DNA of 44,708 nucleotides from Escherichia phage Ayreon. Shown here piece after piece: positions 1 through 44,708 of the stretch (positions are counted from its first letter, which is position 1; every line of letters begins with the position of its first letter). The position numbers and the translations under genes were made by a program. The notes beneath the pieces are model-generated. The model ran no database searches. It was not told the DNA's origin and saw only the letters and a program-made list of their open reading frames with translations. The stretch is taken from the sequence record MF807953; one strand, written 5' to 3'.

Positions 1-25
1 ATGTTTAAAACATTCTGGAGCGGGT

Positions 26-520
26 ATGGATCGAGAGTTAAAAAATCTGACGCTGAATATCAGTCAACTGGCGGCACTGTCAGGTGTACATCGCCAGACT
101 GCTGCGGCAAGGCTGCAAAATCTACCCGTTGCAGGGGGGCATGAAAGCAACCTCAAGCTTTATCGGGTGGTTGATATTGTGTCGGCATTTCTGGCATTAC
201 CACCGCCGGTTGCAGAAGGCGAAATGGACGCGCATGAGCGCAAAGCCTGGTATCAGTCTGAACGTGAGCGTCTTAAGTTCGAACAGGAAACGGCGCAACT
301 CATTCCGGCCAGTGATGTCAGACGGGAGTTTGCCATCTGGGCAAAAGCGGTCGTGCAGGTGCTGGAGACATTACCGGATATTCTGGAACGTGACTGCGGC
401 CTGCAGCCTGCTGCTGTGAGCCGTGTTCAGTCCATTATTGATGATCTGCGCGATCAGATAGCCCTGCGGGTGACCGAAGCAGGTGCGGATGATGAGGAGG
501 AATTACAGCAGGAGGAGTAA
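26..520 (+). CDS. Terminase small subunit (Nu1-like, DNA-binding)
   Basis: 164-aa ORF directly upstream of and overlapping the large terminase start (ATGA overlap at 520). Acidic C-terminus; position typical of lambdoid small terminase. Reading frame is open to the window edge, so the true start could lie upstream. Confidence 0.7.
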   Translation: MDRELKNLTLNISQLAALSGVHRQTAAARLQNLPVAGGHESNLKLYRVVDIVSAFLALPPPVAEGEMDAHERKAWYQSERERLKFEQETAQLIPASDVRREFAIWAKAVVQVLETLPDILERDCGLQPAAVSRVQSIIDDLRDQIALRVTEAGADDEEELQQEE

Positions 521-2622
521 TGCTGAATCAGGAAACCGCAAAGGCAGCACGAACCGATTCAGGTTATATCCTTCGCGCACCGAGACGAATGCGGGTTGCT
601 GATGCCGTTGCTCAGTATATGCGAGTGCCCATGGGGGCCGGGAACTCAGTCCCGTGGGATCCGCTGGTGGCACCGTATGTTCTTGAGCCGATGAACTGCC
701 TGGCCTCGCGTGAATACGACGCAGTGATATTTGTTGGTCCGGCACGAACCGGCAAGACTATCGGCCTGATTGACGGCTGGGTGATTTACAACGTGATTTG
801 CGATCCTGCGGATATGCTGATCATTCAGATGACGGAGGAAAAAGCCCGCGAACACTCCAAAAAACGACTTGCCAGAACGTTTCGCGTCAGCCCGGAAGTG
901 GTCAGTCGCCTGAGTCCGAACAAAAATGACAACAACGTTTATGACAGAACATTCCTTGCTGGCAACTACCTGAAAATCGGCTGGCCGTCAGTCAATATCA
1001 TGTCCTCATCAGATTATAAATGCGTGGCGCTGACGGATTATGACCGTTTTCCGGAAGATATTGATGGCGAGGGGGATGCCTTCTCTCTTGCCTCAAAACG
1101 TACCACCACATTTATGTCCAGTGGTATGACGCTGGTGGAGAGTTCCCCCGGCAGGGATGTGAAGGATGTGAAATGGCGACGGACTTCACCGCATGAGGCT
1201 CCACCAACCACGGGGATACTGTCGCTCTATAACCGTGGCGATCGCCGTCGCTGGTACTGGCCCTGTCCACACTGTGGTGAGTATTTTCAGCCCTGCGGCG
1301 ATGTGGTTGCTGGTTTCCGTGATATTGCCGATCCCGTGCTGGCAAGTGAGGCGGCTTATATTCAGTGTCCTTCCTGTTCAGGACGGATTATGCCTGAACA
1401 AAAACGTGAGCTGAACGGACGTGGGGTCTGGTTGCGGGATGGTGAATCCATCAATGCGGATGGCAGTCGTTATGGTGATCCCCGACGCTCACGTATTGCG
1501 TCATTCTGGATGGAGGGTCCGGCAGCTGCTTACCAGACACTCTCGCAACTCGTTTACAAACTGCTTACTGCAGAACAGGAATACGAGACAACCGGAAGTG
1601 AAGAAACACTCAAGACGGTTATCAATACCGACTGGGGATTACCTTATCTTCCCCGTGCCAGCATGGAGCAACGAAAAAGTGAACTGCTTGAGCAGCGGGC
1701 AGAGCCAGTTCCTTCCCGCAGTGTGCCGGATGGCGTTAATTTCCTGGTGGCGACAGTTGATGTGCAGGCGGGACGTCATCGCCGTTTTGTGGTTCAGGTA
1801 ACGGGCTATGGCAGCCGTGGCGAACGCTGGATTATTGATCGTTACAACATCACGCAGTCATTGCGCGGTGACAGCGACGGGGAGAGCCAGCGAATTGATC
1901 CGGCCAGCTATCCGGAAGACTGGGATGTCCTGCTGACGGATGTTTTTCATAAAAGCTGGCCGCTGGCCTCCGATCCTTCTCAACAAATGCGACTGATGGC
2001 AATGGCGGTGGACTCCGGCGGTGAAGACGGGGTCACTGATAATGCCTATAAATTCTGGCGTCGTTGCCGTCGTGATGGCCTTGGTAAACGTATTTACCTG
2101 TTTAAGGGTGACAGCATCCGGCGCGCAAAACTGATCACCCGTACATTCCCTGATAACACCGGACGAACGGGCCGCCGGGCGCAGGCCGCAGGTGATGTGC
2201 CGCTCTGGCTTCTTCAGACGGATGCCCTGAAAGACCGGGTGAATAACGCGTTATGGCGTGACTCGCCAGGTCCCGGCTATGTGCATTTCCCTGACTGGCT
2301 GGGGAGCTGGTTTTACGACGAACTGACGTATGAAGAGCGGAGCAGTGACGGGAAATGGAGTAAGCCGGGTCGCGGTGCCAACGAAGCTTTTGACCTGATG
2401 GTGTATGCCGAGGCTCTGGTCATTCTGCATGGATACGAAAAGATCCGCTGGCCGGATGCACCGGAGTGGGCGAGCCGGGAAACCTGGCTGGAGTGTGTCC
2501 CGGACAGTACCGAACCGTCATCCTCACCGGAACCGGTATCCACGCCTGTTAAAAAACAAAAACGGAAGAAAACAGTAACTGACGATGTTAACCCCTGGCT
2601 GACTTCCGGAGGATGGTTATGA
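520..2622 (+). CDS. Terminase large subunit (GpA family)
   Basis: 700-aa ORF with Walker A-like motif FVGPARTGKT near the N-terminus and a Cys-rich CPHCGEYF..CPSC zinc-binding-like patch; size and position match lambdoid large terminases. Confidence 0.85.
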   Translation: MLNQETAKAARTDSGYILRAPRRMRVADAVAQYMRVPMGAGNSVPWDPLVAPYVLEPMNCLASREYDAVIFVGPARTGKTIGLIDGWVIYNVICDPADMLIIQMTEEKAREHSKKRLARTFRVSPEVVSRLSPNKNDNNVYDRTFLAGNYLKIGWPSVNIMSSSDYKCVALTDYDRFPEDIDGEGDAFSLASKRTTTFMSSGMTLVESSPGRDVKDVKWRRTSPHEAPPTTGILSLYNRGDRRRWYWPCPHCGEYFQPCGDVVAGFRDIADPVLASEAAYIQCPSCSGRIMPEQKRELNGRGVWLRDGESINADGSRYGDPRRSRIASFWMEGPAAAYQTLSQLVYKLLTAEQEYETTGSEETLKTVINTDWGLPYLPRASMEQRKSELLEQRAEPVPSRSVPDGVNFLVATVDVQAGRHRRFVVQVTGYGSRGERWIIDRYNITQSLRGDSDGESQRIDPASYPEDWDVLLTDVFHKSWPLASDPSQQMRLMAMAVDSGGEDGVTDNAYKFWRRCRRDGLGKRIYLFKGDSIRRAKLITRTFPDNTGRTGRRAQAAGDVPLWLLQTDALKDRVNNALWRDSPGPGYVHFPDWLGSWFYDELTYEERSSDGKWSKPGRGANEAFDLMVYAEALVILHGYEKIRWPDAPEWASRETWLECVPDSTEPSSSPEPVSTPVKKQKRKKTVTDDVNPWLTSGGWL

Positions 2623-39444: not shown

Positions 39445-40197
39445 ATGAACCTTGAAGCCTTACCAAAATATTACTCCCCAAAATCTCCAAAATTGAGCGA
39501 TGACGCACCGGCGACAGGCTCAGGTGGTTTAACGATTACGGATGTGATGGCTGCGCAGGGGATGGTGCAGTCGAAAGCACCGCTTGGGTTTGCCTTATTC
39601 CTGGCAAAAGTTGGTGTTCAGGATCCTCAATTTGCGATTGAAGGTCTGCTCAATTACGCGATGGCACTGGATAACCCGACATTGAACAAATTGAGTGAAG
39701 AAACCCGGTTACAGATCATCCCTTACCTTGTGAATTTTGCCTTTGCTGATTATTCCAGGTCTGCGGCAAGTAAGGCTCGCTGTGAGCATTGTGCTGGTAC
39801 TGGATTTCATAATGTATTGCGCGAAGTGGTGAAACACTCCAGAAGCGGGGAATCTGTTATCAAGGAAGAGTGGGTGAAGGAACTATGTCAGCATTGTCAT
39901 GGTAAGGGAGAAGTCAGCACAGCGTGCAGAGGGTGTAAGGGTAAAGGTATTGTCCTGGATGAAAAAAGGACCCGGCTTCATGGCACGCCTGTTTATAAGA
40001 TTTGTGGGCGTTGCAATGGAAACCGGTTTAGCCGTTTACCAACCACACTGGCGCGGCATCATGTCCAGAAGCTGGTACCAGACCTGACGGATTATCAGTG
40101 GTACAAAGGATATGCAGATGTCATTGATAAACTGGTTACAAAGTGCTGGCAGGAAGAAGCATATGCAGAGATACAATTGAGAAATGTGACAAGATAA
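39445..40197 (+). CDS. Q: Late gene antiterminator Q
   Basis: 250 aa from MNLEAL with a GGAG ribosome-binding site; Cys-rich zinc-binding region CEHCAGTG...CQHCHGKGEVSTACRGCKGKG...CGRCNG; followed by a candidate pR' and tR' terminator. Confidence 0.75.
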   Translation: MNLEALPKYYSPKSPKLSDDAPATGSGGLTITDVMAAQGMVQSKAPLGFALFLAKVGVQDPQFAIEGLLNYAMALDNPTLNKLSEETRLQIIPYLVNFAFADYSRSAASKARCEHCAGTGFHNVLREVVKHSRSGESVIKEEWVKELCQHCHGKGEVSTACRGCKGKGIVLDEKRTRLHGTPVYKICGRCNGNRFSRLPTTLARHHVQKLVPDLTDYQWYKGYADVIDKLVTKCWQEEAYAEIQLRNVTR

Positions 40198-41480: not shown

Positions 41481-42533
41481 ATGAAAAATACTGTAAAAAT
41501 AAACAGTGTTGATTTAATCAACGCTGATTGCCTGCATTTTATTCAGTCCCTGCCTGATGATTCCATTGACCTGATTGTTACCGATCCGCCGTACTTCAAG
41601 GTGAAACCCAACGGCTGGGACAATCAGTGGAAAGGGGACGAAGATTACCTTAAGTGGCTGGACCACTGTCTGGCCCAGTTCTGGCGGGTGTTAAAACCTG
41701 CCGGAAGCCTTTACCTGTTCTGTGGGCATCGCCTGGCATCTGATATTGAGATCATGATGCGTGAACGTTTCAACGTGCTTAACCATATCATCTGGGCGAA
41801 GCCGTCCGGACGTTGGAATGGGTGTAATAAAGAAAGTCTGCGCGCATATTTTCCTGCCACAGAGCGCGTTCTGTTTGCTGAACATTACCAGGGGCCATAT
41901 CGCGGCAAAAGTGACGGCTATGCAGCAAAAGAAAGGGAACTCAAACAGCACATAATGGCACCGCTGATATCGTATTTCAGGGATGCTCGTGCCGAACTGG
42001 GTATAACGGCAAAACAAATTGCCGAAGCCACAGGTAAGAAAAATATGGTTTCCCACTGGTTTGGTGCCAGTCAGTGGCAGTTGCCGAATGAGGCTGACTA
42101 TCGGAAGTTACAGGCACTGTTTTCCCGTATAGCGGCAGAGAAGTTTCAGGAACAACAACTGGAACAACCACACCACCAGCTGGTGGCATCTTATGATTCA
42201 CTGAATCGTAAATATTCTGAATTGCTGGATGAGTTTAAATCTCTCCGGCGCTATTTCTCCGTATCAGTCTCCGTGCCTTATACCGATGTCTGGATGCATA
42301 AACCCGTTCAGTTCTACCCGGGGAAACATCCGTGTGAGAAACCGGCGGATATGCTCAGGCAAATAATCAATGCCAGTAGTCGACCTGGTGATCTGGTTGC
42401 TGATTTTTTTATGGGATCCGGTTCCACAATAAAAGCAGCAATGGCGCTGGGGCGTCGGGCCTTAGGTGTTGAGCTTGAGTCAGAGCGGTTTAACCAGACA
42501 GTGAAAGAGATAAACGAGCTGGTGGGGAAATAA
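41481..42533 (+). CDS. DNA methyltransferase (N6-adenine/N4-cytosine amino-MTase, orphan)
   Basis: 350 aa; catalytic motif IVTDPPYF near the N-terminus and AdoMet-binding motif DFFMGSGST near the C-terminus; no restriction endonuclease partner nearby. Confidence 0.85.
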
Positions 42534-42600
42534 TCTGGTGGCCACGTCAGGTGGCCTTTTTATTTCCATTACACAGCACCCGCATCTGCGAGGTGGGGTT

Positions 42601-42816
42601 ATGAAATCCATGGATAAGTTAACAACGGGTGTCGCCTATGGCACCTCAGCAGGTAGTGCCGGGTACTGGTTTTTACAGTTGCTCGATAAAGTCACGCCCT
42701 CACAGTGGGCGGCAATAGGTGTGCTGGGTAGTCTGGTATTTGGCCTGCTGACGTACCTGACAAACCTTTATTTCAAGATTAAAGAAGATAAGCGCAAGGC
42801 TGCGAGAGGTGAATAA
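42601..42816 (+). CDS. S: Holin (phage 21 S21-type pinholin)
   Basis: 71 aa from MKSMDK (dual-start motif); sequence [62 protein letters not shown] matches my recollection of the phage 21 holin. Confidence 0.85.
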
Positions 42817-43313
42817 TGCCTCCATCATTACGAAAAGCAGTTGCTGCTGCTATTGGTGGCGGAGCAATTGCTATAGCATCAGTGTTAATCACTGGCCCAA
42901 GTGGTGACGATGGCCTGGAAGGTGTCAGCTACATACCATACAAAGATATCGTTGGCGTATGGACTGTATGTCACGGACACACCGGAAAAGACATCATGCT
43001 CGGTAAAACGTATACCGAAGCAGAATGCAAAGCCCTCCTGAATAAAGACCTTGCCACGGTTGCCAGACAAATTAACCCGTACATCAAAGTCGATATACCG
43101 GAAACAACGCGCGGCGCTCTTTACTCGTTCGTCTACAACGTGGGTGCTGGCAATTTCAGAACATCGACGCTTCTTCGCAAAATAAACCAGGGCGATATCA
43201 AAGGCGCATGTGACCAGCTACGTCGCTGGATATACGCTGGCGGTAAGCAATGGAAAGGCCTGATGACTCGTCGTGAGATTGAGCGTGAAGTCTGTTTGTG
43301 GGGGCAACAATGA
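42816..43313 (+). CDS. R: SAR endolysin (lysozyme with N-terminal signal-anchor-release domain)
   Basis: 165 aa; Gly/Ala-rich N-terminal hydrophobic SAR segment [20 protein letters not shown] followed by a lysozyme-like domain. Confidence 0.85.
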
Positions 43314-43777
43314 GCAGAGTAACCGCGATTATCTCCGCTCTGGTTATCTGCATCATCGTCTGCCTGTCGTGGGCGGTCAATCATTACCGTGATAACGCCA
43401 TCGCCTACAAAGAACAGCGAGATAAAAAAGTCAGTGAGCTGAAGCAGGCGACCGCCACCATTACTGACATGCAGCAGCGCCAGCGTTCTGCTGATGCACT
43501 CGATGCTAAATACACGAAGGAGTTAGCTGATGCGAAAGCTGAAAATGATGCTCTTCGGCGCAAGCTTGATAATGGTGGTCGGGTGTTCGTCAAAGGAAAA
43601 TGCCCTGTGCCATCCTCAGCCGAAACCTCCAGCGCCTCCGGCATGGGCAATGATGCCACCGTCGAACTCTCTCCAGTTGCTGGACGAAACGTTCTCGGTA
43701 TCCGGGACGGAATTATCCGCGACCAAACAGCACTGAGAACGCTTCAGGAATACATCAGGACGCAATGCCTTCGATGA
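43310..43777 (+). CDS. Rz: i-spanin Rz
   Basis: Start [30 protein letters not shown] matches lambda Rz; ATGA overlap with the endolysin stop. Confidence 0.85.
43530..43736 (+). CDS. Rz1: o-spanin Rz1 (lipoprotein embedded in +1 frame of Rz)
   Basis: MRKLKMML start, lipobox VVGCSS and a Pro-rich segment [11 protein letters not shown], entirely inside Rz in another frame. Confidence 0.75.
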
Positions 43778-44406
43778 TAGCGATAATTTTACTCATCATC
43801 CTTCACATCTGGCTCTGTAGACAGGATGGTGATCACTTCTGGAGTGAATCCAGATTAAACATCTCATTGCTGATGCTTGATATTGAGCATCTTGCGCGCG
43901 GTAAGGGGCTGCGTTGAGATAAGGGCCAGTCATTACAAATACCAGGATTTAGCCTCGCATTCGCGGGGCTTTTTATTGCCATTACAAAAGCCACTCCCTA
44001 CAGAGTGGCTTTGATAATGGTTTATACCCTACACGGGATAGCTTAACTGATATCCCTTTTAACGGATAAAGGTATTCAAGCCTGACACATCATGCGCTGT
44101 ATCGTCGCCGTATTCCCGTATTAACAGAGACCGTAGCCCGACGGGGAACTCCTTCTGCGCGAGTGTGCGGGAATAATCAAAAACGATGCACACCGGGTTT
44201 TTACCGCGTTTATGGTTCGCGGGTTTGTCCCTCATGCTCGCCAGTCCTGTGCGGGGGTGGAAGAAACAGGACACTTACACAGATTCTTGTGGGCACGATG
44301 CTATGCCTTTCTGGATTATCCCGATGCCATTCATGCAAGGCGTTGTATCAGACGTTCGTCAGAGCTGTCAGGCTGACGGGTCCTCCCGGTGGGGTGGCCT
44401 GCCACG

Positions 44407-44494
44407 GGGTGAAGGAACTATGTCAGCATTGTCATGGTAAGGGAGAAGTCAGCACAGCGTGCAGAGGGTGTAAGGGTAAAGGTATTGTGCTGGA
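44407..44494 (+). repeat. Displaced copy of an internal Q-gene segment
   Basis: 88 bp identical except for one mismatch to 39872-39959 (inside Q, encoding ELCQHCHGKGEVSTACRGCKGKGIVL). Confidence 0.9.
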
Positions 44495-44558
44495 GACATT
44501 ACCGGATATTCTGGAACGTGACTGCGGCCTGCAGCCTGCTGCTGTGAGCCGTGTTCAG
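44487..44558 (+). repeat. Displaced copy of an internal small-terminase gene segment
   Basis: 72 bp identical to 359-430 (inside the Nu1-like gene, encoding LETLPDILERDCGLQPAAVSRVQ); overlaps the Q copy by an 8-bp microhomology gtgctgga. Confidence 0.9.
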
Positions 44559-44604
44559 CCGTGGAAAAAGGCTAGTTTTTGAAATTTCATTCGTCATCAC
44601 CACT

Positions 44605-44640
44605 ACTGTAATGTATTGATATTACAGTGATTTTATTTTT
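44605..44640 (+). terminator. Terminal inverted repeat followed by T-rich tract
   Basis: actgtaat-gtattgat-attacagt followed by gattttattttt, in an AT-rich non-coding tail 70-100 bp before the window end. Confidence 0.3.
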
Positions 44641-44708
44641 ATGGTGTCGATTTTGATTGTTTTTTGTTCACCACTAACACCGTTTGCCTAAAGTTGTTCG
44701 CAAGATGC

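Follow-up and report, generated by a model that had tools for sequence, protein, structure and literature searches.

Should an open frame that lies wholly inside another gene on the same strand be kept as a gene or pruned as spurious? The question arises near the right-hand end of the window, by which we mean the whole 44,708-nt stretch of Escherichia phage Ayreon (record MF807953) that was analysed here. A preliminary description had placed an Rz1 o-spanin lipoprotein gene at 43530-43736, nested in the +1 frame of an Rz gene at 43310-43777, and had advised against pruning the overlap. We followed up this reading using family profiles, comparison with lambda and with other phages, structure modelling and an analysis of polymorphism in both frames.

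Layout and family membership of the nested pair

Both sets of coordinates proved exact to the base. The features of the locus are as follows, all on the plus strand.

42601-42816, plus strand: gene that opens the lysis cassette, for a phage-21-type holin of 71 aa with an MKSM dual-start motif (match to Pfam PF04971 'Bacteriophage P21 holin S', E = 2e-35)
42816-43313, plus strand: lysozyme-family endolysin whose N-terminal hydrophobic segment is rich in Gly/Ala (Pfam PF00959, E = 1.8e-45; PHROG 7 endolysin)
43310-43777, plus strand: Rz, the i-spanin gene, 468 nt, 155 codons plus a stop codon at 43775-43777
43319-43381, plus strand: predicted N-terminal transmembrane helix of Rz, about residues 4-24 (hydropathy; identity to lambda)
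43518-43522, plus strand: Rz1 Shine-Dalgarno sequence AGGAG, inside the Rz coding sequence, with a 7-nt spacer to the Rz1 ATG
43530-43736, plus strand: Rz1, the o-spanin lipoprotein gene, 207 nt, 68 codons plus a stop codon at 43734-43736 (precursor of 68 aa, mature protein of 50 aa)
43530-43586, plus strand: Rz1 signal peptide and lipobox, matching a PROSITE-style lipoprotein rule at residues 9-19
43611-43646, plus strand: Rz1 proline-rich region of 12 residues, including KPPAPPAW, which corresponds to the P5 stretch and W38 of lambda
about 43951-43980, plus strand: terminator-like hairpin and T run downstream of the lysis cassette (consensus scan, pattern match only: 8-bp stem with 6 GC pairs, then TTTTATT)

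Rz1 starts 220 nt into Rz (43530 minus 43310), a distance that leaves a remainder of 1 on division by three and therefore sets Rz1 in the +1 frame. Its own stop codon comes 41 nt short of the end of Rz, so that Rz1 lies entirely within Rz. The mechanical list of open reading frames began Rz at a GTG at 43298. This start was rejected in favour of the ATG at 43310, which is the better one because it is exactly where similarity to lambda sets in and because it shares the sequence ATGA with the endolysin stop codon. The ATG is preceded by GGGGG.

Both products were assigned to spanin families using Pfam, PHROG and direct comparison to lambda. Rz matched Pfam PF03245 (Bacteriophage Rz lysis protein) with 100.9 bits against a cut-off of 25.4 (E = 8e-29, profile positions 1-125 of 126) and PHROG 13 'Rz-like spanin' over its full length (E = 5e-75), and protein comparison to lambda Rz gave 61% identity (E = 3e-60). 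The proposed likeness of the nested product to known Rz1 proteins was borne out by matches to Pfam PF06085 (Lipoprotein Rz1 precursor; 75 bits, gathering score 27.9, E = 3.8e-21, profile positions 1-41 of 41) and to PHROG 3198 'Rz-like spanin' (E = 3.8e-26, full length), and by 47% identity to lambda Rz1 in BLASTP (E = 6e-11). An NCBIfam scan returned no model for Rz or Rz1. It gave only weak sub-threshold PspB matches, which were rejected as due to the membrane helix and the helix after it.

A rival reading is that the +1 frame is open by chance inside Rz and that no protein is made from it. ORF length is not evidence here, as alternative-frame ORFs of the size of Rz1 are common in the window; Rz itself contains an 84-aa antisense ORF (43405-43659), and its +2 frame has no stop-free run longer than 41 codons. 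Most public annotations also lack Rz1, which again fits a chance frame. Against it stand the Pfam Rz1 match, well above the gathering score, an ideal AGGAG at 7 nt from the start codon, and the complete signal peptide and lipobox described below. The block holding the Shine-Dalgarno sequence and start codon of Rz1 differs from that of lambda by one base.

The two genes lie at the end of a row of lysis genes, upstream of which is a DNA methylase gene that precedes the holin gene. In a 99.9% identical E. coli prophage the corresponding genes are annotated essD (holin), rrrD (endolysin) and 'lysis protein' (Rz). The endolysin is probably of the SAR type, judging from its N-terminal sequence and from R of phage 21. 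Rz/Rz1 closes a phage-21-type lysis cassette made up of pinholin and this probable SAR-type lysozyme, where lambda has S and the R transglycosylase as partners. The embedded class of two-component spanins is defined by an o-spanin gene that occupies the +1 frame within the i-spanin gene, adjacent to the gene for the endolysin (Kongari et al. 2018, PMC6139136). The window has this layout, with Rz1 nested in the +1 frame and the start of Rz at the endolysin stop codon. Rz/Rz1 is almost certainly an embedded two-component spanin that is real and correctly placed.

Protein anatomy of Rz1 and Rz

The preliminary description expected a lipoprotein signal in Rz1, and one was found. The N-terminus, MRKLK, has three K/R among its first five residues and is followed by a hydrophobic core and the lipobox M-V-V-G-C19. 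The PROSITE-style lipoprotein rule was applied to 1413 candidate starts, covering all six frames of the window and ORFs of 40 aa or more. Five of the 1413 matched, and among these five Rz1 alone has a charged N-terminus directly before the hydrophobic core. The mature protein would begin at Cys19 and carry its lipid there; this cysteine is invariant across the alignment of divergent Rz1 proteins. The inner-membrane retention signal of lipoproteins is Asp at position +2. Sorting to the outer membrane is expected for Rz1 because its +2 residue, directly after Cys19, is Ser20 and not Asp; the +2 residue of lambda Rz1 is Thr.

Lambda Rz1 has a 19-residue signal sequence, a lipidated C20 and a disulfide-forming C29 (Cahill et al., PMC5295617). 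Besides the lipid cysteine, the only cysteine in the mature part of the window Rz1 is Cys27. It aligned with lambda C29 in BLASTP, while MAFFT put it three columns off; Cys27 is probably the exact equivalent of C29 and, like it, may form a homotypic disulfide. The mature part contains 8 prolines in 50 residues, with KPPAPPAW aligned to KPPPPPAW of lambda. P34, P36, P37, A38 and W39, the P-x-PPAW core, are invariant in six divergent Rz1 proteins. In lambda the penta-proline at 32-36 is essential and position 34 tolerates alanine experimentally (PMC5295617). The window sequence PPAPP is thus the lambda penta-proline PPPPP with alanine at the one position shown to be tolerant. Further along, two mutation-sensitive residues of lambda Rz1, I39 and W46, are replaced in the window by Ala and a residue other than Trp. 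The window Rz1 is also longer than that of lambda (68 aa vs 60) and has a different C-terminal tail.

Rz was examined using hydropathy, alignment and structure prediction. The most hydrophobic 19-mer spans residues 4-22 with a mean Kyte-Doolittle value of 2.63, and the best one beyond residue 30 reaches 0.65, so that hydropathy indicates a single N-terminal hydrophobic segment with no second one. Residues 1-31, transmembrane domain included, are identical to lambda Rz. Cys98 and Cys153 align with lambda Cys99 and Cys152 and are invariant in the alignment of divergent Rz proteins. These observations support Rz as an i-spanin, predicted to sit in the inner membrane with type II topology and to have a helical domain in the periplasm. 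Lambda Rz has a transmembrane domain at residues 1-24, two coiled-coil regions with a linker between them, and disulfide-forming C99 and C152 (PMC5295617). A single-sequence AlphaFold model of the window Rz (mean pLDDT 74) has a long helix at 3-87, with pLDDT of 85-96 to residue 50 and about 78 by residues 71-80. A segment of low confidence (98-114) comes next, and after it two helices, 122-129 and 139-154; pLDDT is 46-64 over the last third. The model agrees with the lambda layout of transmembrane domain, CC1, linker and CC2 (PMC5295617); it is compatible with that order of parts without proving it.

Many records matching Rz are labelled 'endopeptidase Rz' or 'prophage endopeptidase', a name that is historical annotation. 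Taken at face value these labels would make Rz a peptidoglycan endopeptidase and the embedded ORF an accessory to the enzyme. However, no catalytic domain was detected in Rz and the Rz family was the only Pfam match above the curated cut-off. A sequence search of the PDB with Rz likewise returned no solved relative, only chance coiled-coil-like matches (myosin, E = 0.017), and the model is that of a membrane anchor followed by long helices. Lambda genetics and biochemistry assign Rz/Rz1 to outer-membrane disruption (PMC5295617, PMC6139136). It is therefore exceedingly improbable that Rz is an enzyme, and we keep to its reading as an i-spanin.

Conservation and variation across the overlap

A viral contig scan recovered 80 loci with a 92-100% identical Rz, and together with the E. 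coli prophage and phage Kapi1 these made a set of 82 close relatives. Both ORFs were intact and the Rz1 start was unchanged in 82 of the 82. At 92-100% identity, retention of the ORF alone is weak evidence of coding, because the presumably spurious antisense ORF was also open in 62 of 65 variants, a figure that would suit the chance reading of the +1 frame as well. The comparison was extended with a tblastn search using Rz1, which gave 80 phage records. A divergent set was made up of Salmonella phage SPN3UB, a Klebsiella phage, Cronobacter ENT39118, Shigella Ss-VASD and lambda. The nested Rz1 ORF was kept in all five of these distant relatives, with Rz1 identity down to 46%, which argues against a frame left open by chance.

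Polymorphism was measured on 65 distinct sequences, with the indel-bearing lambda left out. Nucleotide diversity was 0.030 in the overlap, compared to 0.059 upstream and 0.045 downstream, the higher value of the 5' non-overlapping part being due partly to recombination with other Rz N-terminal modules. Segregating sites at Rz codon positions 1, 2 and 3 numbered 26, 9 and 17 in the overlap and 21, 24 and 51 outside it (chi-square p = 0.002). The most variable Rz codon position thus changes from position 3 outside the overlap to position 1 inside it, which is the wobble position of Rz1. Changes that are synonymous in Rz were found at 17 of 160 possible sites in the overlap, where they alter Rz1, and at 57 of 176 outside it (Fisher p = 1.4e-6), a depletion of about 3-fold. 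All of these counts are of alleles among related, recombining sequences and not of independent events. The shift in codon position and the depletion of Rz-silent changes indicate that the second frame in the overlap is under selection, and the pattern of variation shows purifying selection on both overlapping frames.

The direction of the shift is the prediction of a translated +1 frame and not of the antisense ORF. As a gene, the ORF at 43405-43659 was rejected, since it has its wobble position in common with Rz and cannot explain the movement of variation to Rz codon position 1. With peak variation at the Rz1 wobble position and Rz-silent changes depleted across the overlap, we consider the chance of a merely open, untranslated +1 frame to be vanishingly small.

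A different rival accepts both genes as intact in sequence but takes them for relics that a defective prophage has stopped expressing or needing. The closest matches to the locus are prophages in E. coli chromosomes, and an odd patchwork insert of 150 nt lies 630 nt downstream, both of which fit a relic. On the other side, the whole window is a lambdoid genome with a full module set, and in the related E. coli prophage the end of the window runs on into its start. Near-identical spanin genes are also present in isolated plaque-forming phages (vB_EcoS-606R10 at 99.8%, Kapi1 at 97.4% and mEp460 at 96.4%), and purifying selection acts on both frames. That Rz and Rz1 are relics is very unlikely, and we read them as probably working spanin genes. 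The best phage match of the window is cdtI, which covers 65% of the right-hand 24.7 kb at 97.9%.

The insert, at 44410-44559, is unrelated to the spanin genes and is recorded here as a separate observation. It puts 150 nt in place of 9 nt of the related prophage and is built from two pieces of the genome's own genes joined via an 8-nt overlap. Positions 44407-44494 match 39872-39959, within a Q-like antiterminator ORF, at 98.9% identity, and 44487-44558 match 359-430, within the small terminase gene, at 100%. A search with 291 nt across the insert found no place with at least 80% coverage among 5426 complete genomes of E. coli and 50,697 phage records, and exact searches of viral and genome contig collections found no copy of the internal junction. 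The length of the insert is about that of one short read. It could be a templated insertion made by microhomology-mediated repair, or an assembly chimera.

Relation to other spanins and to public annotation

Lambda Rz/Rz1 (NC_001416, 45966-46427 and 46186-46368) has the same layout as the window, with a +1-frame Rz1 that starts 220 nt into Rz and ends inside it. The lipobox cysteine, the second Rz1 cysteine, the PPxPPAW motif and the two periplasmic cysteines of Rz are common to both. Nucleotide identity to lambda is uneven along Rz, with 97% over nt 1-60 and only 47-62% beyond nt 270. Salmonella phage SPN3UB gave the reverse profile. Its F482_gp68 and F482_gp69, both annotated 'Rz-like spanin', have the same nesting and coordinates (701-907 inside 481-948 of L087), and its Rz1 is 99% identical to that of the window. 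SPN3UB Rz is 73% identical overall; over nt 271-427 it is 96-97% identical to the window, whereas its N-terminal half is a different module (62% over nt 1-60, 62-65% over nt 1-120). In the related Salmonella phage SE1Spa, Rz is annotated Gp15.

As segment identities switch from lambda to SPN3UB, the window Rz has a lambda-type N-terminal half and a SPN3UB-type C-terminal half that carries Rz1. The switch lies near a conserved 18-residue stretch of Rz that also holds the Rz1 ribosome-binding site and start codon. Such mosaicism is already well recognised, both in lambdoid phages and in spanin families. We would put it at about an even chance that this is a hybrid allele in which, if the conserved stretch is a preferred site of crossover, the C-terminal half of Rz and the whole of Rz1 would always be exchanged as one unit. 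Joint travel of these two parts would be unsurprising because lambda Rz and Rz1 bind each other through their C-terminal parts (PMC5295617). If true, the reading as a crossover unit adds detail and no new principle.

Other spanins reach the same end by other gene arrangements. P2 LysB/LysC are overlapped, T4 PseT.3/PseT.2 are separated and T1 gp11 is unimolecular, compared to the embedded class of the window, and none has a detectable sequence relationship to the window genes. The proposed job is the same in each, namely to disrupt the outer membrane in the final step of lysis, using an inner-membrane anchor and an outer-membrane lipid anchor (PMC6139136).

By analogy, one late mRNA would give both window proteins, Rz from the ATG at the endolysin stop codon and Rz1 in the +1 frame from its own internal ribosome-binding site. 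Rz would be anchored in the inner membrane by its N-terminal helix, with a largely helical domain reaching into the periplasm. For Rz1 the expected route is export, attachment of lipid to Cys19, cleavage by signal peptidase II and delivery to the outer membrane, in its inner leaflet. Rz and Rz1 would then bind through their C-terminal parts to form a complex across the periplasm, through the peptidoglycan mesh, which would restrain the complex until the endolysin removes it. Spanin complexes freed in this way would let the progeny out by disrupting the outer membrane, most likely through its fusion with the inner membrane. Lipidation and localisation of Rz1, formation of the Rz-Rz1 complex and membrane fusion are carried over from work on lambda Rz/Rz1, and the established model is that of a periplasm-spanning complex that disrupts the outer membrane (PMC5295617, PMC6139136).

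The pair is ordinary and already known. The preliminary description had called the arrangement a known one, and the embedded +1 layout is indeed a textbook case (PMC6139136), with the exact proteins already catalogued. In NCBI and UniRef the exact 68-aa Rz1 is named 'lysis system o-spanin lipoprotein Rz1' or 'Lipoprotein Rz1' and is found on about 1000 contigs, and the exact Rz is named 'lysis protein'. The warning not to prune the overlap was also sound, as public annotations of the same type of locus mostly omit Rz1. The RefSeq annotation of the 99.9% identical E. coli prophage lists Rz and omits Rz1, and among the 30 records listed of the 80 that encode Rz1, only SPN3UB has two spanin features under the match.

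To the biology known from lambda Rz/Rz1 the locus adds nothing, and its importance lies in annotation quality. The lysis cassette is not complete without the nested Rz1, which gene callers and many entries in GenBank and RefSeq nevertheless leave out, and a pipeline that drops same-strand nested ORFs loses a true gene here.

Spanin gene annotation and overlapping reading frames

The nested o-spanin lipoprotein gene Rz1 was usually missing from public annotation, both in the RefSeq-annotated E. coli prophage L001 (at 2311-2778) and in the matching phage records, and the i-spanin gene Rz was still often named 'endopeptidase' or 'outer membrane lytic protein'. Among the 30 phage records listed, only Salmonella phage SPN3UB (L087 701-907) had both spanin genes annotated under the match. 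In two of the 80 viral-contig loci with related Rz genes (L004-L083) the Rz1 ORF was 77 aa long, extended by an upstream in-frame ATG at Rz offset 193, with the N-termini MLNTRRSWL-MRKLK... and MQNTRRSWL-MRKLK.... This upstream ATG is absent from the window, and it is the shorter Rz1 start that the conserved ribosome-binding site serves.

An antisense ORF was also evaluated as a candidate gene within Rz:
43405-43659 (-), 84-aa ORF
It stayed open in 62 of the 65 distinct sequence variants of the region. Its wobble positions are those of Rz, and it is therefore the usual complementary-frame artefact. Variation in the overlap tracked the Rz1 frame and not the antisense frame, and the antisense ORF is probably not a gene.

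Genome ends and a patchwork insert near the right end

The end (44560-44708) and start (1-520) of the window adjoin in the related E. coli prophage L001.

Window segments contiguous in prophage L001
Window 44560-44708: L001 3420-3568
Window 1-1930: L001 3569-5498

As the two ends are contiguous in the prophage, the window is a lambdoid genome in its entirety, with its opening point 5' of the small terminase (DUF1441) gene at a distance of about 25 nt. The best phage match of the right arm was phage cdtI, and no tRNA genes were found in the window.

Close to the right end, an insert in the window replaces a short stretch of the otherwise 100% identical L001:
44410-44559, 150-nt insert in place of 9 nt (cgggagcgt) of L001
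The insert is a patchwork of two copied pieces of coding sequence from the same genome, joined via an 8-nt overlap with short microhomologies.

Sources of the insert pieces
Piece 1: 88 nt, window 39872-39959, Q-like antiterminator ORF, 98.9% identical
Piece 2: 72 nt, window 359-430, small terminase gene, 100% identical

Among the complete E. coli genomes and the phage records searched, none covered 80% or more of a 291-nt query that crossed the insert, and the internal junction had no match in viral_contigs or genome_contigs. The insert may have arisen by templated insertion or as a chimera of the assembly, and it accounts for the odd PHROG matches of ORF 44163-44582.

Flanks of the lysis cassette

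A pattern scan detected a hairpin upstream of the lysis genes:
42540-42556 (+), terminator-like GC hairpin with T run
It lies between the DNA methylase gene (ending at 42533) and the holin start (42601), which places it within the late operon, immediately before the lysis genes, where Q-modified polymerase presumably reads through it.

At the other flank a small ORF shares the last 13 nt of Rz:
43765-43917 (+), 50-aa ORF
The product has a hydrophobic N-terminus and matched PHROG 11822 (unknown function) with E = 9e-38. Its exact 50-aa sequence was detected on about 1000 contigs, and databases name it 'hypothetical protein' or 'Bacteriophage protein (Gene 65)'. The ORF thus adds a small, conserved membrane protein to the end of the lysis cassette.
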